Of a DNA stretch of 57,975 nucleotides, positions 1,756-43,044 are shown in pieces. The position numbers were made by a program, and so were the translations under genes. Location: IMG/VR virus record IMGVR_UViG_3300030392_001553, positions 1 through 57,975 of that record; one strand, 5' to 3'. The notes beneath the pieces are model-generated. The model saw only the letters and a program-made list of their open reading frames with translations. It made no database searches and was not told the DNA's origin. Numbering within the stretch: the stretch's first letter is position 1; each line of letters starts with the position of its first letter. The stretch comes from a virus. Taxonomy: Duplodnaviria > Caudoviricetes.

Positions 1756-4685
1756 TATATGTTCTGCTTATCTTTTGTTAGGTCCCAATGAAGTTTTAGT
1801 TTTTTTGGTTTTTTATATTCCGGTACGTTACTTCTTAAAGCCCTAAGTCCAGAAACATTGAAATTGACCTTGGCCGTTTCTCCTCGGTATATGGAGTGAA
1901 TATCGTCTAATGATTCAACTATTATACGTGATGTTTCTTCAAGAGCACGCGTAATTGCTGCGGGGTTTGCCAGCACTCTTTGATCGAACCCAGTAATCCC
2001 TCTCCACACCACTTTTCCGTCTTCTATTGGTGCATCTACAGTAAAACCTAACGCACGAGCGACACGAACACGGTCAGCATCTGAAATAGTTCTGCCGCTT
2101 TCTCCAAGAAGGATTGGTGTTAATTTGGCCAAAAGCAAGCGGCCCTTTGTTGAAAATGCGTCAACAGCACCTATGTCTTTGCCATCAAGAAGCCATTTTT
2201 TAAAGTCATCTAGTCCTGACCCTTCACCGAAGGCACCCGCAATACCCGCCACCATGGTTCCAAAACGATCTTTAAAAGTACCTGTACCGACTAATTTTTT
2301 AGGATCTATTCGATGTAGCTCATCTAGTTTATTGTAAAGATCCCGGTAATTTCTTGACACTCTTCCATATTCATAAGTAAGAGCTTTGAATTCGCCTCCG
2401 GACATTAAATATTTAACTTCAGGGATTAGGAGTTTGCCTTTGGTATCCCTCTTAAAAAAAGCCCCTGCCTTCGGATAACCATAAACAGGCCGATAGTTAC
2501 TTTTGTAATTTTCCCACGGGGCGTAAGGGGCGGCGGTGGCCGGACTAAAAAGTTTATTTAGATCTTCGAGGGGGAGATCCCAAACGCCTTCCCCTCCCTT
2601 CTGTTTAAGTAAATCTTTAAATTTAGGGGTAGGCTTACCTATCTCAATCACTGGGACATTAAGGTTGTTCATAGATTGTTTTTGATAATAATCCAAGGAT
2701 ATTGTCATTCCCTCTGGAATAATGACAAATCCCTTTGCGTCTTTTCTGCCAGGAAACACATTTTGTGGAACCTTTGTTGCTTTTGTGGTCATATAATTTG
2801 TTGGTCTTAAACGCTTTCTCTCTTCTTCTCTTTGTTCTGTCCGGATTGTTCTTCTTTCTGCCCTGTTTTCCGCATCCAAAGAAAGTTTTTGTTGGATAGC
2901 TATTTTAGCGACAGTCATTTGTCGGGCACGTTTATCCGAAGTTTGTTTTTGTTTCCAATTCATAATAGCGGGGAGGGACTTCACAGCACCGCCAGCTATG
3001 TTTTGCATAGCATCGGGTGACGTACCCGCTGCTATATTAGCCCCTAGATAAGCTATCAAGAAACCCATCATTTGGTCATCGTCTTTTTCGTCTAAAGCTG
3101 GAAGAGCTTTTTCTATATCGCTTTTCAAGTCTTCTATGGTTCTGTCTGTGCCCTCTCCGCTTGCAGTACCCACTATTCTTGAAACGAGGTTATCAACAGC
3201 GGCCACTTTTGCATCTGCTGATGTATTTTTCTTTTTCTTATTCAGTAAAGAAAAAAGATCAGCTTGGGAAACTACAACGCCACCTTCTTCTGGATTTACA
3301 ATATTTTTTACCGTGACAGGGGCAAATCCAAGTCCTTCACCTGCCACACCCCATCCTTCAGGGATATCTTCTGATTTCTTTGTTACAGATAAGGGATCCT
3401 CTTCATATTGTTCAGGATCCAGTAGATCATCTGGCGTCCTCGTGCCAAAAGGACCTGTTAAACCGTAAGATGCAAGATTTTTGTCTCGCCATTCCTTCTC
3501 ACGTTTCTCTGCCAAGATTTTGAGTTCGTCTGATGTATTAGGACTTTGGACATCAGCGGATTGAAGAACTTCATTAACGAATTCCGGTGATTTTGTTTTT
3601 TGCAGGTCTATTATAAATTGTTGTGCCTGTGTAACGGGTTGTATACCCATTGTCCCAAGAACATTTATTTCTGTTTCAGTGGGAGTTATCGAAGAACCTA
3701 AGTTAAGACCGCCAATCCAATCTGCCGTCAGATATCGACCGTAGTCAAGTGTAGCCTTTTCTAAATCTTCCTGATAAAGTTCTACTTCAGGGTCGTAACC
3801 TTCTCCACTTATGTCACTTCCCCCCACAGATAAAGATCCTAATTCACTGGGGGGTAGTTTAGTTTCGCTCGTATAACCCTGTTCTTCTGACATCTCCGGT
3901 ACTCCTGCCGTTTGAGAAACAGGACCGGACTCAAATTTTATTGAGAGAGTTTTGGCAATCTCCTTGGCGAAATCATTAGCTGAATTTGTCTGGCCTATTA
4001 TACCTGCTCCAGCCGAAAGAATTTCTTTTTCAAGATCAGGGCGAATAGATATAAGCTCTGTTAAAGCTCTCCGTTCACTAAAACTACGTCCGGAAGCTTC
4101 TTCCTTGTCGCTGAATAAATATCCAAGAAGGTCTTTTTGACCCCTGAATCTCTGGGCAAGAAAAGAATCAACCCTGTTTCCTACTACTTCTGCTCCAGCT
4201 ATAGTCTTTTCAAGAAGTGTTCCGACACGACCCGGAATGGATCCTACAATTTTTCGTGCCATGCTTGGCTCTTCAGTATATTTTTTACCGCCGGGTTTGG
4301 TGATTGATTCCGCGAATTCTGCGGGAAACATGGTCATTAATCTTTCGGCATCCGTTTCTGTTCGTGCTTGGAAAAGGGTTAACTGTCTGCTAGGCCGCAA
4401 GAAACTGGGGATTGATTTATCCTGGAAATCTCGACCTCGTCCATATATGGGGAAAGAATACATACCGCCGTTATCAAATCTTGCAATCCCTCCTTTGGCC
4501 ATGGACAGGGAAGCACCGCCAACGGGACTTGTTGCATCCTGTGAAACGGCTTCTATAAGAGGTTGAGAGGAGGCCAGAATACCGGAAGCCTGATTGATGT
4601 TCTGCATCGGGTTTCCCACAGGAATCATTCCCCCGCCACGAAACATGTGGCGTCTAGCAAGAACAGAACGAATAGGACGGGCCAT
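1755..4685 (-). CDS. Large putative internal virion/ejection protein (976 aa)
   Basis: Position after tail genes; helical; MFRGG/MAKGG/FDNGG motifs. Confidence 0.55.
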   Translation of the reverse strand: MARPIRSVLARRHMFRGGGMIPVGNPMQNINQASGILASSQPLIEAVSQDATSPVGGASLSMAKGGIARFDNGGMYSFPIYGRGRDFQDKSIPSFLRPSRQLTLFQARTETDAERLMTMFPAEFAESITKPGGKKYTEEPSMARKIVGSIPGRVGTLLEKTIAGAEVVGNRVDSFLAQRFRGQKDLLGYLFSDKEEASGRSFSERRALTELISIRPDLEKEILSAGAGIIGQTNSANDFAKEIAKTLSIKFESGPVSQTAGVPEMSEEQGYTSETKLPPSELGSLSVGGSDISGEGYDPEVELYQEDLEKATLDYGRYLTADWIGGLNLGSSITPTETEINVLGTMGIQPVTQAQQFIIDLQKTKSPEFVNEVLQSADVQSPNTSDELKILAEKREKEWRDKNLASYGLTGPFGTRTPDDLLDPEQYEEDPLSVTKKSEDIPEGWGVAGEGLGFAPVTVKNIVNPEEGGVVVSQADLFSLLNKKKKNTSADAKVAAVDNLVSRIVGTASGEGTDRTIEDLKSDIEKALPALDEKDDDQMMGFLIAYLGANIAAGTSPDAMQNIAGGAVKSLPAIMNWKQKQTSDKRARQMTVAKIAIQQKLSLDAENRAERRTIRTEQREEERKRLRPTNYMTTKATKVPQNVFPGRKDAKGFVIIPEGMTISLDYYQKQSMNNLNVPVIEIGKPTPKFKDLLKQKGGEGVWDLPLEDLNKLFSPATAAPYAPWENYKSNYRPVYGYPKAGAFFKRDTKGKLLIPEVKYLMSGGEFKALTYEYGRVSRNYRDLYNKLDELHRIDPKKLVGTGTFKDRFGTMVAGIAGAFGEGSGLDDFKKWLLDGKDIGAVDAFSTKGRLLLAKLTPILLGESGRTISDADRVRVARALGFTVDAPIEDGKVVWRGITGFDQRVLANPAAITRALEETSRIIVESLDDIHSIYRGETAKVNFNVSGLRALRSNVPEYKKPKKLKLHWDLTKDKQNI

Positions 4686-5836: not shown

Positions 5837-7527
5837 TATGCTACTGCCCCTTCAAAACGGGACATAAGATCGTACATTCTTGCGGCCCCCATATCCCTGT
5901 TTCCGCCCCCCGCTCCTCTGACGGCGGCTTCTGTCATTACAAATTCACCATTCGATAACCGGGCAGGAATACTATCGGATTTCGCTGTGCCGGGGCCTAT
6001 TACTTCTCCGCCCCCCTGTAGAAAGCTGGCTAAACCTCCTTCTGCCGCGGTGCGATATTTACTTTTGAGATAATCAGAGGCTTGTGTCCCTGTGATTCCA
6101 GCTGTTCTCGCAATCTGTTCGCGGCTGGCTCCCGGTACTATGCCAGATTCAATAAGAAGCTCCCGTCCTCTAGGACTTCTTTTCTGGTCATCCGGAAGAG
6201 CAAGGAACTTGGCGTAAGCGGCTTGTTGTTTCGAAGTGGCTGATTCTGGTAAACCTTTGTCTCCTCTTTGATCTTTCCAAGCTCGCCAATAGGAATAAGC
6301 AGTAGGACCTAAAGTCGCAGCCGCTTTCCCGTAAAGTCCGGCACCTTTGCCAGTGGGATCGGTAATTTTCTGTACAAAAGTAGGTTCAAGAGGCTTCCAT
6401 TGATTAGACTTAACGCCAGTATTTTTATTGACACTTACAGTCGCTTCATAGGTTATATCGTTAAGAGTTTTTTGGTAGCCTGGAGAGTAGTCATTGGGGT
6501 TACCTAATCCTTCTTTCGAACTAAGTGTTGAAACCGAAGGCGAGAAGGGTGCATCAGTTGATTCTCTTATAAAGCCCACCCCTTCAGGACTCTGGCTTAT
6601 AGCCTGTTCCAAGCTTCTTTCTGTATCTATTCCCGCGCCTCTAAGTTGTCTCTCCGTTAATAAAGTCTCACCGGAGCGTGGAACCAGTGGAGGCGTTCTT
6701 TGAGACGGTACATCCCCATAATCAACGGATGGTGGCTGGACCCCTGCAGCTATGGGAGGTTCATCCATCCAACTTGCAAGAGTAGATGGCTCTGTCTGGA
6801 CCCCTGTATTTAAAATTGCCGCCGCATCTGTGGGAGGTTTAAAATCCGGTTTATACTCCATACCACCCAAAGCAGACCAATTTTTCAATTCTCCGCTACC
6901 TAATATACCCTGCTCCCAAGGACTAGAAGGAGCACCGCTTAATAAATCAGCACCCGCTTGTAAGGGGTTCGTCATACCTTTGGAAAATTCACCAAAAGCT
7001 TTATCCCAACCCCCGTTACCTCCCAGACCACCAATGCCCTTCATAAGGGATCCACCTACCCAAGCCGTACCTACACTTTTCAGAACATCTCCCCATGATC
7101 CTCCCTGAAGTTTTGTGGCCAGACCAGAAGCGATCAACCCGCCAATGCCCGGTAAAAGGATATTACCAAGAATAGGGGCTATGAAAGGAAGAGCTTTCTT
7201 GAAAACCTTTTTTACAGCCCTGAAAATCTTCTTGAAGAAAAATTCCGGTTGCCCGGTAATCGGGTTAATGGAGTTAAAACCGCTTCCCACGACATACCGA
7301 TTGGGATTCCGGATTCCCATCATACGCATCTGGCGAAACAGGTCTTCTTTTAATCCCGGATTGGCTTCCAGTATTTCCCTTGGGATAATGGCTTCGCCTT
7401 CTGCGGCATGAACCATGTAGGAGTCACCGTACCGCCCCAACGTAGCCAGACCATTGGCCAAGGCATGAGGAGTAGGTTCTCCATTATACTTAGGTCCTGT
7501 ATTCAACATCTCAATACCCTTCGCCAA
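5836..7527 (-). CDS. Putative internal virion protein
   Basis: N-terminal GRYGDSYMVH..NPITGQPEFF and C-terminal GPGTAKSDSIPARLSNGEFV domains common in this phage group. Confidence 0.65.
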   Translation of the reverse strand: MAKGIEMLNTGPKYNGEPTPHALANGLATLGRYGDSYMVHAAEGEAIIPREILEANPGLKEDLFRQMRMMGIRNPNRYVVGSGFNSINPITGQPEFFFKKIFRAVKKVFKKALPFIAPILGNILLPGIGGLIASGLATKLQGGSWGDVLKSVGTAWVGGSLMKGIGGLGGNGGWDKAFGEFSKGMTNPLQAGADLLSGAPSSPWEQGILGSGELKNWSALGGMEYKPDFKPPTDAAAILNTGVQTEPSTLASWMDEPPIAAGVQPPSVDYGDVPSQRTPPLVPRSGETLLTERQLRGAGIDTERSLEQAISQSPEGVGFIRESTDAPFSPSVSTLSSKEGLGNPNDYSPGYQKTLNDITYEATVSVNKNTGVKSNQWKPLEPTFVQKITDPTGKGAGLYGKAAATLGPTAYSYWRAWKDQRGDKGLPESATSKQQAAYAKFLALPDDQKRSPRGRELLIESGIVPGASREQIARTAGITGTQASDYLKSKYRTAAEGGLASFLQGGGEVIGPGTAKSDSIPARLSNGEFVMTEAAVRGAGGGNRDMGAARMYDLMSRFEGAVA

Positions 7528-13997: not shown

Positions 13998-14762
13998 CTA
14001 TGCTGCTATATCTGTCCAATCCGGAGTCTGTGAAGCATCAACCTCAGACCATTCCGGAGTTTGTGAATCACCGACTGCTGACCAATCCGGAGTCTGTGAA
14101 GCATCAATAATCCCCCAAATATTCGGGGCACCAATCTTGCCTGTTCCTGCAACACCTGTTGGGGTGACGTTAGCCGTTCCTGTAATCGTAACAGTGCCAA
14201 TTCCACCCGTTCCTGCAACACCTGTTGGGGTGACGTTAGCCGTTCCTGTTGGCGTAACGGCCCCAAGACTTCCTGTACCCGCGACGCCTGTTGGGGTGAC
14301 GTTAGCCGTTCCTGTAATCGTAACAGTGCCAACCGATCCCGTGGCCGCGACGCCTGTCGGAGATGCCTTGGCTCCCGCCGTAATCGTGACGGATCCAACT
14401 GCACCCGTTCCTGCGACACCCGTAACTGTAACTGTACTTGTGCCCGTAATCGTGACGGTGCCAATCGCGCCCGTTCCTGCGACGCCTGTTGGGGTAACAG
14501 ACACTCCGCCCGTAATCGTGACGGATCCAACTGCACCCGTTCCTGCGACGCCTGTTGGGGTAACACCAGCACCTGCCGTAGGAGTGACCGTACCAACTGC
14601 ACCCGTTCCTGCGACGCCTGTTGGGGTGACTGTGCCAGTACCTGTAATCGTGACGGTGCCAATCGCGCCCGTCCCTGCAACGCCCGTGACATCAACTGCA
14701 ATGGGAGAACCCCACGTGCCCGAACCCCACGTGCTGCGTCCCCAACCATTGATGTTTGCCAA
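13998..14762 (-). CDS. Repeat-rich virion fibre-like protein
   Basis: ~21-aa VTPTGVAGTG repeats, N-terminal WG repeats, C-terminal SQTPDW x3. Confidence 0.75.
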   Translation of the reverse strand: MANINGWGRSTWGSGTWGSPIAVDVTGVAGTGAIGTVTITGTGTVTPTGVAGTGAVGTVTPTAGAGVTPTGVAGTGAVGSVTITGGVSVTPTGVAGTGAIGTVTITGTSTVTVTGVAGTGAVGSVTITAGAKASPTGVAATGSVGTVTITGTANVTPTGVAGTGSLGAVTPTGTANVTPTGVAGTGGIGTVTITGTANVTPTGVAGTGKIGAPNIWGIIDASQTPDWSAVGDSQTPEWSEVDASQTPDWTDIAA

Positions 14763-33342: not shown

Positions 33343-33374
<32 letters not shown>

Positions 33375-34946: not shown

Positions 34947-35147
34947 ATGGAACACAACGAACAATTTCCAACCCCGTTATTTATGGCCATCAACCGCCTA
35001 TGCGCGGTTACCAATTTATTAAAACAAAGACCCCGACCCGACCCCGACCCGACCGGATGGTGCCTGGATTACTGGCGCCTGGTACATTCCCGACTGCAAA
35101 GAGATTACGCCAGGCTTGACATCGAGCGGAAGAAATTCGTACTATAA
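34947..35147 (+). CDS. Hypothetical protein
   Basis: GGAGG RBS; contains CCCGAC repeats. Confidence 0.5.
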   Translation: MEHNEQFPTPLFMAINRLCAVTNLLKQRPRPDPDPTGWCLDYWRLVHSRLQRDYARLDIERKKFVL

Positions 35148-36181: not shown

Positions 36182-36682
36182 TTATGCATCGGAAATTTCA
36201 ACCCCGACCCCGACCCGGCGAGGGAGCCAATCTATCGGAAAACTTTTGTTCCCCGACCCGACCCCGACCCGACCTCGAACTATCTCGAGAATCCTGGCGA
36301 TAAGCCCCGACCAATCATCCCCCGACCACAGGCATGGGACCACGGTTCCCGACCCATTGCTCTTCAAACCATGGTTCAATAACTCCCGACCCCGACTACC
36401 GTCAAACAAATATAGGTTGGGGGAGGAGAGGGGGTGGACTAAGAAAAAACTTACGCCCCCCGACTGAGAATAAGCAAAATTCCACGCAACTTGATGAGAA
36501 GAGATATTTATGCGGTTAGTTTTCGTAATTTTAAGTTCTATCCAGAACGGGCATCCCTCCGCGCATATATGAACATCTGGAATACCGCCTCCGAAGCGGT
36601 TTTCAATCCTTGTTGTGTTCCAGTGAGAGGGTATCTTTTCCTTGAGTTTGTTCCACAGTAATGTCTCTGGTTTTTGAGTCAT
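36182..36682 (-). CDS. PD-(D/E)XK nuclease (VRR-NUC/Holliday junction resolvase-like)
   Basis: RIEN..GGGIPDV...WIELK...HQVAW; start reassigned to MTQK after GAGGA. Confidence 0.8.
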   Translation of the reverse strand: MTQKPETLLWNKLKEKIPSHWNTTRIENRFGGGIPDVHICAEGCPFWIELKITKTNRINISSHQVAWNFAYSQSGGVSFFLVHPLSSPNLYLFDGSRGRELLNHGLKSNGSGTVVPCLWSGDDWSGLIARILEIVRGRVGVGSGNKSFPIDWLPRRVGVGVEISDA

Positions 36683-37184: not shown

Positions 37185-37269
37185 TTCTCCTTTATATAGG
37201 AGCGTTTTTTAATTTACAATTCAGATTTTCGAATTTTGATTTGTCTAAAGGCTGCACTTTTGAAAAGTA

Positions 37270-37435
37270 AAGTGTTCCAAAACAGGGGGTATATGTTCCA
37301 AGTGTTCCCAAAGTGTTCCCAGATATTTTTCTTAAACCATTGTTTTAGAACCGTTTTTTTTTAAATTTCCCTCCGGGAACACTTGGAACACTTTTTTCGG
37401 CTGAAAAAACTTTTTTAAAAACTTTTTTTAAAAAT
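37270..37435. repeat. Iteron-like AAGTGTTCC repeats around an AT-rich core (origin or pac candidate)
   Basis: Direct copies at 37270, 37291 (imperfect), 37300, 37311; inverted copies at 37376, 37385; A/T tracts. Confidence 0.7.
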
Positions 37436-37455
37436 CTCAGCTATATAGGTCACCG

Positions 37456-37485
37456 TTGACAGTGTACCATGTTTCATGCTAATTT
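37456..37485 (+). promoter_or_regulatory. sigma70-like promoter of the operon containing Tas/TIGR
   Basis: TTGACA-N18-TAATTT with TGn extension. Confidence 0.6.
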
Positions 37486-37524
37486 TACCTTGCTTTTGTT
37501 ATTTAATTAGAAAGGAGAAAGACG

Positions 37525-37974
37525 ATGCCGAATTGGACAAAGAACGAATTAGAGGTTTCGGGGAAGGCGAAAGAAGTTCGTCGTTTTCTCAAACACATGG
37601 GCGAGGGATTTTCTTTCGAGAGGATTATTCCGATGCCTGAAAACTGTTTTCGGGGACTCTTGGGGACTAAGGAAAAGGAAGAGTGCCTTAAAAAAGGTAT
37701 CCCCAACTGGTACGATTGGTGTTCTGAGAATTGGGGAACCAAGTGGGACTGCTCCGAAGTTGAGGTTGAGAAGGTTGGCTGCTTGGAGACAAATGCGGAA
37801 GAGCTTGATGCCGTACTGGACACGAGCAAAAACTATTCTTGGGTAATATACAAATTTCAAACAGCGTGGGATGCCCCCCACCCTATCATTGCAAAATTAA
37901 AATCTGATTGGCCTGATCTTGATTTCGGTGGCGGATACGTCCATGAGGGTTACGAAGGCTGTGGGAGTTTCTGA
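37525..37974 (+). CDS. DUF1281/YubB ferredoxin-like domain protein
   Basis: MPNW..N, WYDW...NWGTKWD, FQTAW.AP. Confidence 0.8.
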   Translation: MPNWTKNELEVSGKAKEVRRFLKHMGEGFSFERIIPMPENCFRGLLGTKEKEECLKKGIPNWYDWCSENWGTKWDCSEVEVEKVGCLETNAEELDAVLDTSKNYSWVIYKFQTAWDAPHPIIAKLKSDWPDLDFGGGYVHEGYEGCGSF

Positions 37975-37975
37975 T

Positions 37976-38374
37976 ATGGCACAAGAACATTTAACTTATT
38001 TTGACAAGGCCAACCTCGATGAAATCCGCAAGGGTTTGATTTCGGCTTTCAAGGATGTTTCGGAACAGTTTGGCATCAAGTTGAAGCTTGGCAACATTCG
38101 TTTTGACAAAAATTCTTTTAGTTCCAAGATTGAGGCTTCTTTGCATGGTTTCGACCAAGCGGCGGAAGACTACAAAAACCACGCCGAAACCGTACACAGT
38201 TTGCCGACTGAGTGGCTTGGCCAAAGTTTCAACACGGGACAGAAGACTTTTATAGTTGCGGGTCTTAAACCCCGTAGGAAAAACAACCCTGTTGTTTTGA
38301 AAGATCTGAATGGCAAACGCTATGGCGGAACGGTTGAGTTTGTGATGAGACACATGGGAAAGGAGACCCAATGA
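37976..38374 (+). CDS. Hypothetical protein
   Basis: Start reassigned to MAQEH after GGGAG. Confidence 0.7.
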   Translation: MAQEHLTYFDKANLDEIRKGLISAFKDVSEQFGIKLKLGNIRFDKNSFSSKIEASLHGFDQAAEDYKNHAETVHSLPTEWLGQSFNTGQKTFIVAGLKPRRKNNPVVLKDLNGKRYGGTVEFVMRHMGKETQ

Positions 38375-39087
38375 AAAACCAAGTCATAAGTTTATACGAC
38401 TACACGGGCGAAGCTCTTCGCCCGTGGTCCGAGGCCGGATATGAATGTTACGCTTATGACATTCAGCACGAAGATGACACGGGCGGCTCGATTTACTATT
38501 TTCACGCCGATCTTCACGACCCGCAAACCCTCAAGGACATTTTTGCACGGCACAGTAACCGTGTTGCTTTTGTTTCGGCTTTTCCGCCGTGTACTGATTT
38601 GAGTGGGGCGGGGGCGGTCTGGTGGAAGAAAAAAGCCAAGGCCAACAAGGATTTTCAACTGGAGGCGACCGACCATGCCCTGGACTGTTCGATTATGGCG
38701 AGGGAATGGGACGCTCCTTTTTATGTGGAAAATCCGGTGGGGGCTTTAAGCCGTTTATGGCGCAAGCCCGACCATATTTTTAACCCTTGTGATTACGGCG
38801 GTTATTTACCCGAAGGGGATGTCCATCCACGGTATCCCGAAATCATTCCGCCAAGGGATGCGTATCGTAAAAAGACATGTCTATGGACGGGGTGCGGTTT
38901 CAAAATGCCTGTGCCCAAGCCTGTGGATTACGTCAACGTAACTTGTAATCGTAAAGACCCCAAGAAGGGGAGTAACTATTCGCCTATTCATAAAGGGACG
39001 GGCGGAAAATCCTTGAAAACAAAAAACATCCGCAGTGCAACGCCGAGAGGTTTTGCAAGGGCGGTTTATGAGGAGAATGCAAAATGA
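38371..39087 (+). CDS. Compact DNA cytosine-C5 methyltransferase-like protein
   Basis: VISLYD motif I-like, FPPCTDL catalytic PC, VENPV motif VI, RSATPRGFA. Confidence 0.75.
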   Translation: MKNQVISLYDYTGEALRPWSEAGYECYAYDIQHEDDTGGSIYYFHADLHDPQTLKDIFARHSNRVAFVSAFPPCTDLSGAGAVWWKKKAKANKDFQLEATDHALDCSIMAREWDAPFYVENPVGALSRLWRKPDHIFNPCDYGGYLPEGDVHPRYPEIIPPRDAYRKKTCLWTGCGFKMPVPKPVDYVNVTCNRKDPKKGSNYSPIHKGTGGKSLKTKNIRSATPRGFARAVYEENAK

Positions 39088-39902
39088 ATACTTCTTTAAA
39101 CGAAAGTGAACTGATCACTTCGGTCGATAAGCTTTCCCGTGATCTACGGGTAGCTTCCCGAACCTTGAGTGATGCTGAAGCGCGGTTTCTTGTGGACGCT
39201 TATTACCAGATGCAGGAAAACCGCATTCGCTCGAACAACCAAGTTCGTCAAATGGACCGGGAACCCCATGAAGTTTTGGGGTGGCTGGCGCAACAGTCTG
39301 CGTTGCTGGAGAAAAGCGTTCAAGCGGCCTTGGATATTTATTCGGATACGCACCCTATTGGTGAGCGCATCCGGAGTGTTGTCGGGGTTGGTCCTGTTAT
39401 TGCAGCGGGACTTCTCGCGCACATCGATATCAACATGTGTTCGACAGCGGGGGCCATATGGCGTTATGCGGGACTTGACCCGACCTTGGAGTGGAAAAAG
39501 GGCCAGAAGCGTCCCTTTAATGCTTCCCTCAAAACGCTCTGCTGGAAGCTGGGGGAATCGTTTGTCAAGTTCCAGAACCACAAAAACGATGTTTACGGCA
39601 AGATGTATCTTGAGCGCAAGAACGAGGAAATTCTGCGTAACGAAGCGGGAGACCTTGCCGACCAGGCCAAGGCCAAGCTGGAAAGATTTAATATCGGCAA
39701 AACCACCGATGCCTACAAGGCTTATTCGCAGGGCAAATTACCCCCCGCCCATATTCATGCACGGGCAAAGCGTTATGCTGTTAAGATGTTTCTCAGCCAT
39801 TTGCATGAAGTGTGGTATGAGCATGAGTTTGGTTCGCCGCCTCCTGCACCTTATGCCATGGCTCATGCGGGTCACGCTCATAAAATCGAACCGTCGTTTT
39901 AG
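39084..39902 (+). CDS. TasA-like Nop-domain RNA-binding protein (IS110/Nop family, no nuclease domain)
   Basis: Coiled coil then GVGPVIAAGLL...IWRYAGLDP (Transposase_20/Nop-like); no N-terminal RuvC DEDD domain, no HNH, no IS110 SG catalytic loop; abuts dual-repeat array. Confidence 0.8.
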   Translation: MNTSLNESELITSVDKLSRDLRVASRTLSDAEARFLVDAYYQMQENRIRSNNQVRQMDREPHEVLGWLAQQSALLEKSVQAALDIYSDTHPIGERIRSVVGVGPVIAAGLLAHIDINMCSTAGAIWRYAGLDPTLEWKKGQKRPFNASLKTLCWKLGESFVKFQNHKNDVYGKMYLERKNEEILRNEAGDLADQAKAKLERFNIGKTTDAYKAYSQGKLPPAHIHARAKRYAVKMFLSHLHEVWYEHEFGSPPPAPYAMAHAGHAHKIEPSF

Positions 39903-40386
39903 CCACACGACCAGAGGGAACCACAGCTAATGAGCGAGCCAAGAGTCAAGAGAGAACCAAATCACATGAGCGAGCCATCGAAGGGAAGAGAACCACTTCC
40001 ACGGAGCGAGCCACTCGGGTTGAGGGAACCACAGCCGTGGAGCGAGCCAAACGACAAGAGAGAACCACACGCTGGGAGCGAGCCACGTCCCGAGAGAGAA
40101 CCACGTCCACCGAGCGAGCCACATCTAGGGAGCGAGCCACAAATCGAGAGAGAACCACAAGCTATGAACGAGCCATTGGTGTCGAGAGAACCAATTTACA
40201 TGAGCGAGCCAAACCTTTTGAGAGAACCAAAAACGCGGAGCGAGTCAAAGAGTCTGAAAGAACCACATCGAGAGAGCGAGTCAGAAGCCCTGAGAGAACC
40301 ATATCATAAGAGCGAGCCACAACTGGTGAGAGAACCACATGGAAGGAGCGAGTCAAGTAGCCAGAGAGAACCAAAACGTATGAGCG
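39901..40386 (+). ncRNA. TIGR-like tandem interspaced guide RNA array: 13 full 36-nt units plus one 18-nt half unit
   Basis: Unit = AGCCA-N9-AGAGAACCA-N9-AGCG; 27 distinct 9-nt spacers at strict 18-nt period. Confidence 0.88.
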
Positions 40387-40534
40387 AATTCAAATAACAG
40401 GGAAGACATAGATAGCCCTGTGCGTTATAAACGAACTTGGGTAAAGGAGGCCCGGAAAAAATGGGGTTAGATTGGTACATACTGATTTTAGTGGGATCGA
40501 TAGTTGCGGGAGCCTTGATAAGGTATCCATGGCC

Positions 40535-40729
40535 ATGAGCAAATACAGACATCCCATTCTGAGGGCTGGCGGCGTCCCGGTGATCGTCGTCATTCCCTTG
40601 GGGGAACGTGGTGAAGTGACCCATGACACGGAACCGCAAACCCTTGAGGAGCAAATATGGCTCAAGGACCATAAGCAACTCCAAGAGGCTTATGAAATTT
40701 CTTTAGAGGAGACAGAGCATGAGGGTTGA
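40535..40729 (+). CDS. Hypothetical protein
   Basis: MSKYRHPILRAGG...; start uncertain. Confidence 0.45.
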   Translation: MSKYRHPILRAGGVPVIVVIPLGERGEVTHDTEPQTLEEQIWLKDHKQLQEAYEISLEETEHEG

Positions 40730-40886
40730 ATGTCCGGTTTGCAGGGGCAAAGGAGATCTGGTCGTGGCCGACCCCGATATTGAGAGTAAGTATTTACAGG
40801 TGTCCCTGGATACTTGTCATCATTGCGGCGGCGACGGAAAGGTTCCCCCCGAAATGGCAACCTATGAAGCTGTACGGATGAAGTGA
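40719..40886 (+). CDS. DnaJ-type zinc-finger mini-protein (55 aa)
   Basis: Hand-translated CPVCRGKG...CHHCGGDG; GAGGAG RBS. Confidence 0.7.
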   Translation: MRVECPVCRGKGDLVVADPDIESKYLQVSLDTCHHCGGDGKVPPEMATYEAVRMK

Positions 40887-41935
40887 TAAAAACCCTGGAT
40901 TTATTTTCGGGCATTGGCGGTTTTTCCTTGGGGCTGGAAGCGACCGGGTTTTTTGAAACGACATGTTTCGTGGAGAATGACCCGTACTGCCAGGCTGTAT
41001 TGCGCCACCATTGGCCCGAAGTCCCGATACTAGGAGATATAAAAGATGTCAAAGGATCCGATCTCCCCACCCGACCCGACCTTGTCTGTGGAGGTTTCCC
41101 TTGCCAACCGTTCTCACATGCGGGAAAGCAGCAAGCCCAAGACGACCCCCGACATCTCTGGCCGGAAATGTTTAGAATTATCAGGGAACTCAGGCCCACT
41201 TGGGTATGTGGAGAAAATGTTACTGGACTCGTGCGATTGGGCCTGGACGAAGTACTCACTGACCTGGAAGGCGAAGGCTACGCCACAAGGACGTTTAATA
41301 TTCCAGCTTGCGCGGTCGGCGCCCCGCACCTCAGACAGAGATTGTGGATTGTTGCACACTCCGACAGCGAAAGCGAACCAGATGGCGCCTTCGATGGCAA
41401 CGCGAGACAGCGGCAGTTGGGGTTTGAGTTTGGGGGGAGCGAAGCCACATCATATGATTCCGACCCCGACGACCATGGATCACATCGAGCGAAAAAACAC
41501 AAACAAAACACCAAGCACAGGCAAACTGAATTACGAGACAAACAAGTCTGTGAGTTTGGACAGGTGGGTGAAGATGTGGCCGACACCAACAGCAATGACG
41601 GGGGGAGAGAGTGTGGCTCCAAGCCACCTAACGGGGAAACACGGCTGGAACACAGCGGCAGCGGTGAACGCAGCAGACCCGAAGACCACTGGTCATTTGA
41701 GCCCGAAGTGGGTCGCCTGGTTAATGGGCTACCCAACCGAGTACCTCAGTTGCGTGCCTTGGGAAACTCGATCATCCCGCAAATCGCAAAAGAAATAGGC
41801 TATGCTATAGGAAAGGCACATTATGACAGAAAATCCCGACCCGACCACCCAATGGAAAAACCGCCGTCGAATGGCATGGGTTGCTCTCCTGGCGATAGTA
41901 GCTGCGGGTTTATATATCGTGACAATGGTTCCTGA
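40883..41935 (+). CDS. dcm: DNA cytosine-C5 methyltransferase, large (alpha) polypeptide
   Basis: LDLFSGIGG, GGFPCQPFS, ENV, RQRLWIV, LRALGNSI. Confidence 0.92.
   Translation: MIKTLDLFSGIGGFSLGLEATGFFETTCFVENDPYCQAVLRHHWPEVPILGDIKDVKGSDLPTRPDLVCGGFPCQPFSHAGKQQAQDDPRHLWPEMFRIIRELRPTWVCGENVTGLVRLGLDEVLTDLEGEGYATRTFNIPACAVGAPHLRQRLWIVAHSDSESEPDGAFDGNARQRQLGFEFGGSEATSYDSDPDDHGSHRAKKHKQNTKHRQTELRDKQVCEFGQVGEDVADTNSNDGGRECGSKPPNGETRLEHSGSGERSRPEDHWSFEPEVGRLVNGLPNRVPQLRALGNSIIPQIAKEIGYAIGKAHYDRKSRPDHPMEKPPSNGMGCSPGDSSCGFIYRDNGS
41046..41798 (+). CDS. Alternative-frame methyltransferase beta polypeptide (motif IX plus TPT repeats); start uncertain
   Basis: LHTPTA, IPTPTT, WPTPTA, LSPKWVAWLMGYP. Confidence 0.7.
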   Translation: MSKDPISPPDPTLSVEVSLANRSHMRESSKPKTTPDISGRKCLELSGNSGPLGYVEKMLLDSCDWAWTKYSLTWKAKATPQGRLIFQLARSAPRTSDRDCGLLHTPTAKANQMAPSMATRDSGSWGLSLGGAKPHHMIPTPTTMDHIERKNTNKTPSTGKLNYETNKSVSLDRWVKMWPTPTAMTGGESVAPSHLTGKHGWNTAAAVNAADPKTTGHLSPKWVAWLMGYPTEYLSCVPWETRSSRKSQKK

Positions 41936-42041
41936 AAACAGGTTAACGAAATTATCGTCGTTGCTGGATCTCTGGTTTATTTCGTTGGGCGGCATCGTTG
42001 GCGCCTACATGGGCTTTGCAACGTGGGCTTCTAAGAGATGA
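41823..42041 (+). CDS. Small two-TM membrane protein
   Basis: RRRMAW...IVGAYMGFATW. Confidence 0.7.
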   Translation: MTENPDPTTQWKNRRRMAWVALLAIVAAGLYIVTMVPENRLTKLSSLLDLWFISLGGIVGAYMGFATWASKR

Positions 42042-42892
42042 AACAGTGGTTCAAGCCCGTTGAAAAGGCGTCTTTTCGCGTTATAAGTTTGGGGGCTGGG
42101 GTGCAATCAAGCGTTATGTCCTTGAAAGCCGCCAAAGGTGAATTGAAACCGTCTGTGGATTGCGCGGTATTTGCAGATACGGGATGGGAACCAAAAGCCG
42201 TGTACGATCATTTGAACTGGCTTGAGAAGCAACTTCCTTTTCCCGTTTACCGAGTTAATTCTGGAAACTTAAAAAAAGACCTTGAGACAAACCTCAATAC
42301 CACAGGCCATAGTTTTGCCTCGATACCGTTCTTTTTAGTTAACAAGGACGGTAGTAAAGGTATGGCCCGTAGGCAGTGTACAAGTGAGTATAAACTTAAA
42401 CCCATAAGGAAAAAGATCCGTGAACTGGTGGGCTTGCGTCCACGCCAGAGAACGCCGAAAGATTTGATGGTGGAGATGTGGATTGGCATCTCTAAAGATG
42501 AAATCATGCGAGTAAAGGAGAACACGGATTCATGGGTTACCAACCGCTGGCCTCTCATTGAGGAAAATATGACAAGACAAGATTGTTTAAACTGGTTTAA
42601 TGAAAACTACCCTGATAAAAACTTGGTTAAATCGGCTTGTGTGGGATGCCCTTTTCATAACGACGATGAATGGAGACATTTAAAATATAATTCTCCCGAA
42701 GAATTTGCTGAAGCGTGCCATATAGATGAAATCTTGCGGGACGGCGAAGGCCGTTTTAAAGGTAAAAGATTTTTGCACTCTCAACGCATACCCTTAAAAG
42801 AAGTTGATTTGAGTACGGCGGAAGAGCTAGGGCAACAGGACTTGTTTAAAGATTTAATGCAAAATGAGTGCGAAGGAATGTGTGGCGTTTGA
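42038..42892 (+). CDS. PAPS-reductase-like (adenine nucleotide alpha hydrolase) protein
   Basis: SLGAGVQS, FADTGWE, RQCT, SACVGCPFH, ECEGMC. Confidence 0.8.
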   Translation: MKQWFKPVEKASFRVISLGAGVQSSVMSLKAAKGELKPSVDCAVFADTGWEPKAVYDHLNWLEKQLPFPVYRVNSGNLKKDLETNLNTTGHSFASIPFFLVNKDGSKGMARRQCTSEYKLKPIRKKIRELVGLRPRQRTPKDLMVEMWIGISKDEIMRVKENTDSWVTNRWPLIEENMTRQDCLNWFNENYPDKNLVKSACVGCPFHNDDEWRHLKYNSPEEFAEACHIDEILRDGEGRFKGKRFLHSQRIPLKEVDLSTAEELGQQDLFKDLMQNECEGMCGV

Positions 42893-43044
42893 TGGAAAAT
42901 AAATCCAAGAGACCGGAACCGGAAAGAGTTTACGAGGTCAAGGATCGAAAGTGCCTGAAATGCCAGCAGGTTTTCAAGAGCAGCTGGCCCGGAGAACGGG
43001 TTTGTAAGAAATGTAAATTAAGAATGAGGTGGCGTGGTGGTTAA
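42892..43044 (+). CDS. Small zinc-finger protein (50 aa)
   Basis: Hand-translated RKCLKCQQVFKS..GERVCKKC. Confidence 0.65.
   Translation: MENKSKRPEPERVYEVKDRKCLKCQQVFKSSWPGERVCKKCKLRMRWRGG

Follow-up and report, generated by a model that had tools for sequence, protein, structure and literature searches.

A very probable dual-repeat TIGR-Tas system of the nuclease-free TasA type in the complete genome of a marine tailed phage

What purpose might a tailed phage have for a gene of 272 codons whose own stop codon is the starting point of a long run of short alternating repeats? The question is raised by IMG/VR record IMGVR_UViG_3300030392_001553, a virus contig (Duplodnaviria; Caudoviricetes) that CheckV rates as complete and that represents a 58-kb marine podophage; its full 57,975 nucleotides (nt) are called the window below, and all positions refer to the strand presented. 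TIGR-Tas systems, described in 2025 and under development as compact DNA-targeting tools that need no protospacer-adjacent motif (PAM), form a family of 20,096 reported loci, and an initial annotation, made from the letters of the window alone, had assigned the gene and the repeats to this family, with a protein of the nuclease-free TasA type. We hold with high confidence that the assignment is right and that the locus is a dual-repeat TIGR-Tas system of that type, with a mechanism that we propose from its relatives: the protein is homologous to Tas proteins, has their predicted fold and keeps a Tyr/His dyad, the repeats are near those of the SpTIGR array, and the spacers change between relatives. 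The locus is not a new system but a further example of a known one, and it has every defining feature of dual-repeat TIGR-TasA that can be tested in a sequence, the terminator excepted.

The array occupies window positions 39901-40386 (486 nt) and is composed of 13 units of 36 nt and one half unit of 18 nt, in which edge repeats, (G)AGCGAGCCA, and loop repeats, (G)AGAGAACCA, alternate around 27 spacers that are all different from one another; its first repeat, AGCCA at 39901, overlaps the TAG stop of the 272-codon gene, tasA (39900-39902). So far this is the array that the initial annotation had described, down to the exact coordinates. At the 3' end it closes with an edge repeat that is cut short on its 3' side, GAGCGA (40382-40387), beyond which the sequence is unrelated. 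Both ends of the array, AGCCA and GAGCGA, agree with the account of TIGR arrays by Faure et al. (PMC12045711). Repeat columns 1, 4, 5, 8 and 9 do not vary among the 26 internal 18-nt half units, and the eight spacer columns carry 0.59 bit or less. The unit had been described as containing 9-nt spacers, of which the last base is G in 25 of the 26 half units, so that 10-nt repeats, GAGCGAGCCA and GAGAGAACCA, separated by 8-nt variable spacers make the better reading; the 36-nt layout of the earlier description stands, its spacer length does not. Dual-repeat TIGR arrays have been reported to consist of alternating repeats of 8-12 nt and spacers of 8-9 (up to 12) nt in a 36-nt unit, with a box C (CCA) at the 3' end and a box D (G) at the 5' end of edge and loop repeats alike (PMC12045711). 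The repeats of the window conform closely, with CA in all 26 half units and CCA in 23 of them for box C, and the G of box D before the repeat in 25; the base preceding this G is variable (T in 10 of 26), whereas TaTasR has UG.

The array is not perfectly regular, as seven of its 26 internal repeats deviate from the consensus. Within units 1-6, AGGGAACCA twice replaces the consensus loop repeat, and units 7-13 contain TCA for CCA in three edge repeats, one loop repeat AAAGAACCA and one edge repeat AACGAGCCA; the half unit that lies between the two blocks is predicted to give no working guide. Irregular units of this kind are common in the arrays of relatives too. Tandem Repeats Finder also reports the region, with periods of 18, 36, 72 and 108, of which the last two hint at a higher-order duplication. 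This possibility was considered and rejected: no lag stands out (p 0.81 for the largest), and near-identical spacer pairs occur at chance level, the closest pairs, four in number, being alike at six of eight positions, and at least as many arising in 42% of 3000 trials of a column-preserving shuffle. A search of Rfam returned no match at E up to 1 in window positions 38000-41500.

The adjoining protein leads to the same family. A phmmer search of the PDB aligned TasA with TasR (9mty_A, E 4.5e-12; query residues 41-179 on chain residues 122-260, and 209-270 on 257-318) and with TasH (21kl_A and seven more entries, E 5.5e-11; in 21kl_A, query 85-239 on chain 132-272), and both alignments are confined to the part behind the nuclease domains of these proteins. 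An AlphaFold2 model built with 34 homologues (predicted local distance difference test score, pLDDT, 84.9; predicted template-modelling score, pTM, 0.82) is nearly all helical and ends in a C-terminal hairpin, with two long helices (30-56 and 62-89) that precede the Nop part and align with Tas chains; in Tas proteins the dimer forms through a coiled-coil domain. When the model was compared with the PDB by Foldseek, the ten best matches were all chains of TasR (9mty) or TasH (9w02, 9vzx, 9w04, 21kl, 9w03), with E values of 2.5e-7 to 7.6e-7, query template-modelling scores of 0.53-0.63 and a match probability of 1.00; the Nop fold that the initial annotation had called for is thus predicted, and phmmer finds the same chains. 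Also borne out is its remark that the protein is without RuvC or HNH, in that Pfam contains no nuclease family matching TasA at E up to 10 and offers no more than a 41-residue stretch of Transposase_20 (94-134, E 1.1e-4) and a weak, sub-threshold match to Arc_C (E 0.038; 14.3 bits against a cutoff of 31.9). Aligned with SpTasH, TasA shows gaps opposite about 45 extra N-terminal residues and has no counterpart of the HNH part, and its Y257 and H264 fall on SpTasH Y289 and H296, which are catalytic for the cutting of the tigRNA precursor (PMC13421893); such a C-terminal Tyr/His processing dyad is described as conserved in dual-repeat systems (10.64898/2026.09.09.750476). H264 is invariant in all 34 aligned homologues. 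The protein belongs to a large family, with 5274 proteins at E <= 0.001 among 6587 candidates.

Could the protein instead be a remnant or relative of an IS110-family transposase, with repeats that have no relation to it or form part of a mobile element? Database names would suggest so: apart from the Transposase_20 piece, TasA falls into phrog_4285, 'transposase' (PHROGs, E 5.8e-52), and a relative in NCBI (P0114) is named transposase. The fold has something of this as well, since the bridge-RNA recombinases IS621 and ISCro4 of the IS110 family, which have an RNA-binding Nop-like domain and a coiled coil in common with TasA, are its structural neighbours next after the Tas chains (E 4e-3 to 2e-2). 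We nevertheless consider this origin extremely improbable. The Transposase_20 match does not extend beyond the residues given above and no other IS110 family appears at E up to 10, while the lead of Tas chains over IS110-family chains amounts to about four orders of magnitude in fold (Foldseek lists 11 matches at E <= 0.001 and IS110-family recombinases only from E 4e-3 upward) and to about ten in sequence (IS621, E 0.34 by phmmer). TasA begins at its coiled coil, which leaves no room for the DEDD/RuvC-like catalytic domain that an IS110-family transposase carries at its N terminus, in addition to a full C-terminal transposase domain with a catalytic serine. Furthermore, IS621 and ISCro4 have catalytic domains, use a single bridge RNA and are mobile, whereas the window locus has no catalytic domain, a guide array and a syntenic position: related phages carry the order terS (small terminase subunit gene), methyltransferase, tas and array at one site rather than at varied insertion sites, and the array always accompanies the tas gene. 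On these grounds we do not take the locus for a mobile insertion sequence, in agreement with the initial annotation.

Related loci bear on whether the repeats form a guide array. A scan of IMG/VR yielded 26 viral loci with proteins 39-76% identical to TasA, and nine of the best 10 among them have an array that begins within about 60 nt of the tas stop; a scan of metagenomes gave 94 relatives, of which 80 were kept. Repeat pairs vary by clade, AGCGAGCCA being found with ATAGAACCA, ATAGAAACA or ACTGAAACA, and AGAGATCCA with AGAGAACCA. When 419 non-redundant half units of 34 related loci are taken together, the composition at spacer positions 1-8 is near-uniform (0.11 bit or less), and G occupies position 9 in 94%. 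Among 10 parsed loci not one spacer is common to more than one locus, and none is common with the window. Repeats that are kept beside spacers that are unrelated between relatives make the pattern of a guide array and not of a coding repeat, and the preservation of spacers at the amino-acid level, which had been named beforehand as the contrary sign, was not observed.

Even so, the repeat region might code for protein, either as a separate 155-amino-acid open reading frame of the form (SEPxxxREPxxx)n at 39930-40397 or as an extension of TasA by read-through of its TAG, and this merits attention because the tasA frame contains no stop over the 164 codons past TAG (39903-40394), when the other five frames contain 2-12. 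Moreover, T is scarce at the first codon positions of this frame through the array, a shuffle of bases within spacers leaves it open in only 0.9% of 20,000 trials, and TIGR units can lie inside tas coding sequence (Xu et al., 10.64898/2026.09.09.750476). The rarity is less striking, however, under a column-preserving shuffle, which leaves the frame open in 5.1% of trials, and the frame is one of three chosen after the fact. Nor is it a property of the family: in the 26 viral relatives, 0-113 codons follow the tas stop before the frame closes, which it does inside the long arrays (after 113 codons in L006, 29 in L007, 49 in L010 and 56 in L009), and it reaches the array end only in two short ones (L004 and L023), and the stops themselves are TAA, TAG and TGA alike. 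The 120 best homologues have 262-303 amino acids and end where TasA ends; as no spacer is common between loci, there is no conservation of amino acids; and the frame through the array matches no Pfam family. The window has no tRNA gene, hence no suppressor, and TAG closes 19 of its 77 greedy open-reading-frame calls and is therefore an ordinary stop there. The open frame looks like chance, perhaps aided by the low T content of the window spacers, and a coding role for the repeats seems to us very unlikely.

Arrays of closer relatives show how their content may change. Whole edge-to-edge units are common to closely related arrays, in the same order and with other units interspersed; for example, arrays L006:3741-4326 and L297:364-1000 have three identical units in common, and all eight of the single spacers they share lie in shared or near-shared units. 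The arrays of L222 and L224 contain families of units that are one or two bases apart, including two copies inside one array. This suggests that closely related arrays gain and lose whole 36-nt units and that duplication is followed by point change. A different arrangement is seen in L010:3234-3819, one array in which spacer GGGCCCTT occurs three times as spacer A, each time with another B partner. Locus L016, whose TasA is 60% identical to that of the window, has the same repeat pair, AGCGAGCCA and AGAGAACCA, in repeat chains at two separate places downstream of tas (3886-4582 and 6327-6587).

How, then, does the window locus compare with systems already described? The SpTIGR-TasH system of Salicola phage CGphi29 (NC_020844; PDB 9w03, 21kl and others), whose array reads AAGCGAGCCA-N8-AAGACAACCA-N8 and is processed into 36-nt tigRNAs (Faure et al. 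2025, PMC12045711), is also phage-borne and dual-repeat, with 36-nt units and 8-nt spacers; the edge repeat AGCGAGCCA is the same in both (9/9) and the loop repeats are alike at 8/9 positions, AGACAACCA in SpTIGR against AGAGAACCA in the window. SpTasH and TasA have homologous Nop domains (E 5.5e-11) and the Y/H dyad in common, but SpTasH has an N-terminal HNH nuclease and cuts DNA, whereas TasA lacks HNH and overall identity is only about 25%. The Salicola array begins about 40 nt past a TGA stop and has a strong terminator, in contrast to the window array, which begins inside the stop codon and for which no terminator was found; a Rho-independent terminator after the array is said to be typical, not obligatory (Faure et al., PMC12045711). 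The closest relative in a cultured phage, a gene annotated as hypothetical in Microcystis phage Mvi-JY20 (PP438412; 28.6% identity, E 3e-16), resembles TasA in having no nuclease domain, 8-nt spacers and an array that starts at a TAG stop (with a truncated edge repeat in Mvi-JY20), and differs in its repeats, ATGCGAGCCA and ACGAAACCCA, its strong terminator and its host genome, a cyanophage of 108 kb.

Other TasA proteins, which we liken to that of the window by description and not by sequence, similarly consist of a solo coiled coil and Nop domain with no nuclease: FpTasA, from a dual-repeat system, binds 36-nt RNAs (PMC12045711), MbTasA is reported to bind target DNA and, in Escherichia coli, to repress both a reporter and a gene on the chromosome (10.64898/2026.09.09.750476), and PlTasA is described with stem-loop guides (10.64898/2026.08.11.744272), in which it differs from the dual-repeat window locus. 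From this common architecture the activity to be expected is RNA-guided DNA binding and repression, which we regard as the probable function of the window TasA; that a TasA can act as a transcriptional repressor is already shown for MbTasA in a 2026 preprint (10.64898/2026.09.09.750476). CRISPR arrays, too, have interspaced repeats, unique spacers and an adjoining effector gene. They are built, however, on one repeat of about 23-50 nt with spacers of similar size and are accompanied by cas genes, whereas the window has two alternating 10-nt repeats with paired 8-nt spacers, no cas gene and no leader, its neighbours being methyltransferases, a gene like that for 3'-phosphoadenosine-5'-phosphosulfate (PAPS) reductase, a helicase and a primase; the initial annotation had rightly set the locus apart from CRISPR.

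The mechanism proposed here is modelled on SpTasH, TaTasR and MbTasA, from which we infer the expression, processing, dimerisation, DNA binding and role of the locus. The tasA gene and the array would be co-transcribed from the + strand, inside a block of genes on that strand. A TasA dimer is expected to bind one edge and one loop repeat by their box C (CCA) and box D (G) bases, and its C-terminal Tyr257/His264 loop would then cleave every edge repeat of the precursor internally, with GAGCG|AGCCA as the most likely position, which would release 13 tigRNAs of 36 nt, each reading AGCCA-N8-GAGAGAACCA-N8-GAGCG. The two 8-nt spacers of a tigRNA would pair with opposite strands of one DNA site of about 16 bp, so arranged that, along one strand of the site, spacer A would come first and the reverse complement of spacer B after it. 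Lacking a nuclease domain, the complex should bind and bend the DNA and might block transcription or replication at up to 13 sites, putatively silencing genes of the host or of competing elements.

On this model we looked for targets, with site geometry taken from the account of 8-nt 3' overhangs and a cut 5' of the base with which spacer base 5 pairs (PMC12045711), gaps of 0-2 nt between the two halves, and the opposite arrangement of the spacers as control. In the phage's own genome with the array masked, sites with two or fewer mismatches numbered 0 in the real geometry and 2 in the control, and those with three mismatches 17 and 18. In 80 loci of related phages that surround the portal gene (679,154 nt), there were 0 real sites against 1 control site at one mismatch or fewer, and 17 against 20 at two. 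A larger set of 88 guides in correct phase, from the window and nine relatives, compared with 737,129 nt, gave no exact site in either geometry and 6 real against 7 control sites at one mismatch. The search of spacer A joined to the reverse complement of spacer B that the initial annotation had recommended therefore gave no target in the phage itself or in related phage DNA, real and control counts being about equal. Guide 6 was compared with all viral contigs, where the real geometry matched 75 stretches and the control 31; given that the 75 lie in unrelated, mostly G+C-rich contexts, include several duplicate contigs and have no gene in common, we read this excess as composition noise and not as a target signal. 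Natural targets of TIGR systems are held to be beyond determination as yet (Faure et al., PMC12045711; Xu et al., 10.64898/2026.09.09.750476). Both spacers of unit 6 (40086-40111) open with the same five bases, CGTCC, and its predicted target is therefore a partial palindrome, CGTCC-N6-GGACG.

A number of observations weigh against a working TIGR-Tas system and have to be set beside those in its favour. No target emerged for the 13 guides in the phage's own genome or in related phage DNA, or for guide 6 in the scan of the viral collection. A consensus scan detected no intrinsic terminator after 40386, and hairpins in 40380-40450 fold no better than shuffled sequence (z -0.01). There is no promoter-like site between tasA and the array or directly upstream of tasA, so that co-transcription is put forward from the gene overlap only, and the listed sequencing runs that hold the locus include no RNA run. 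Units with TCA in place of the box C CCA in their edge repeats may be impaired, and Tyr257 is replaced by Phe in relatives P0032 and L009, so the Tyr is not universal in the clade; perhaps the Tyr/His dyad is not strictly needed, or perhaps processing differs. Missing expression signals and targets, together with the half unit and the seven off-consensus repeats, would also be what a true TIGR-TasA locus leaves behind once it has decayed or fallen silent and its guides no longer act. We judge such decay in the window phage to be very unlikely, as the tasA reading frame is intact with its invariant residues kept, irregular units are common in relatives as well, and the array recurs without change in an independent assembly (L219, 2732 nt, identical to window 39043-41774) and in contigs of several studies (zero-difference contigs over parts of the array in four runs from four studies). 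On balance, a dual-repeat TIGR-TasA system remains our preferred reading.

A bias at the 5' ends of the spacers is a separate matter. Ten of the 27 window spacers (39906-40381) start with CA and six more with AA, at A and B positions alike, when in the 419 half units of relatives CA and AA account for 10% each and 20% together (binomial 1.7e-4 for CA, 7.6e-6 for CA or AA); the bias is peculiar to the window array. One tentative explanation, to which we give little credence, is that it mirrors the targets and not the RNA, the bound sites having common outer bases, CA/AA ... TT/TG, around the 16-bp core. Were this so, the bias would betray a hidden motif, on the target side or in spacer acquisition, although the system is reported to be free of motifs, and would provide a first handle on the origin of TIGR spacers.

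The setting of the locus (Table 1) is that of a widespread group of marine phages. The phage's portal protein has 47-52% identity with its counterparts in Pelagibacter phages HTVC027P and HTVC023P, in Roseobacter phages CRP-901 and CRP-902 and in phage DSL-LC04, and IMG/VR contains at least 600 relatives of it. The tasA gene, whose start codon shares bases with the stop codon of the methyltransferase gene upstream (ATG and TGA in ATGA), belongs to a + strand block (37525-43044) with two DNA methyltransferase genes and the PAPS-reductase-like gene; terS lies upstream of tasA on the opposite strand, and the helicase and primase genes lie downstream. A methyltransferase of the phrog_757 type also precedes tas in relatives L005 and L006, and these two, L009 and L010 have parts of the window gene order in common. 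The sequencing runs in which the locus occurs are metagenomes of marine or seawater origin, and in seven entries at least half of the sampled words are present. Two of these runs (X6 and X7; 39898-40391) contain abundant contigs that are alike by about 95% in tasA and in the flank downstream and have the flanks of the array joined differently, for example 39975 to 40391 (depth 273 and 181), and contigs with the window-identical array are present at lower depth; these different joins indicate that close strains carry other arrays.

Table 1. Coordinates of the putative TIGR-TasA locus and of the methyltransferase genes on either side of it
Feature	Position	Strand	Description
DNA methyltransferase	38371..39087	+	phrog_757, E 1.6e-67; translationally coupled to tasA
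tasA	39084..39902	+	272-amino-acid Tas protein, coiled coil and Nop domain, no nuclease domain
TIGR array units 1-6	39901..40116	+	AGCCA, 8-nt spacer A, loop repeat GAGAGAACCA, 8-nt spacer B, GAGCG
Half unit	40117..40134	+	edge repeat, single spacer CATCTAGG, edge repeat; no loop repeat
TIGR array units 7-13	40135..40386	+	closes with the truncated edge repeat GAGCGA
C-5 cytosine DNA methylase	40883..41935	+	PF00145, E 1.1e-44; 497 nt past the array

For the questions of which sites TIGR-Tas guides bind and how arrays gain spacers, the locus is a clean case for work in a native context, as it combines an intact TasA, a self-processing dyad and 13 regular guides with a complete genome. Its phage group is widespread in the sea, and the locus is unchanged in seawater data of several studies. 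Close relatives with the cassette at the same place and with other repeats and guides provide a set in which guide turnover can be followed and, once the host is known, targets can be hunted.

Three further repeat features lie outside the locus. The intergenic region 37185-37524, between the divergent terS and the + strand block, contains at least three direct copies of AAGTGTTCC and two tandem copies of GGAACACTT, its reverse complement, followed by A/T-rich repeats, and also, at 37457, the hexamer TTGACA; the region may serve as an operator or promoter. A tandem repeat in the late-gene region, at 14143-14684 (8.2 copies of 66 nt with 73% matches), probably codes for protein. Three places within 3 kb, namely 33343-33374, 35029-35054 and 36201-36278, have short repeats rich in C (ACCCCG, GACCCCGACCC, CCCCGACCCGA).

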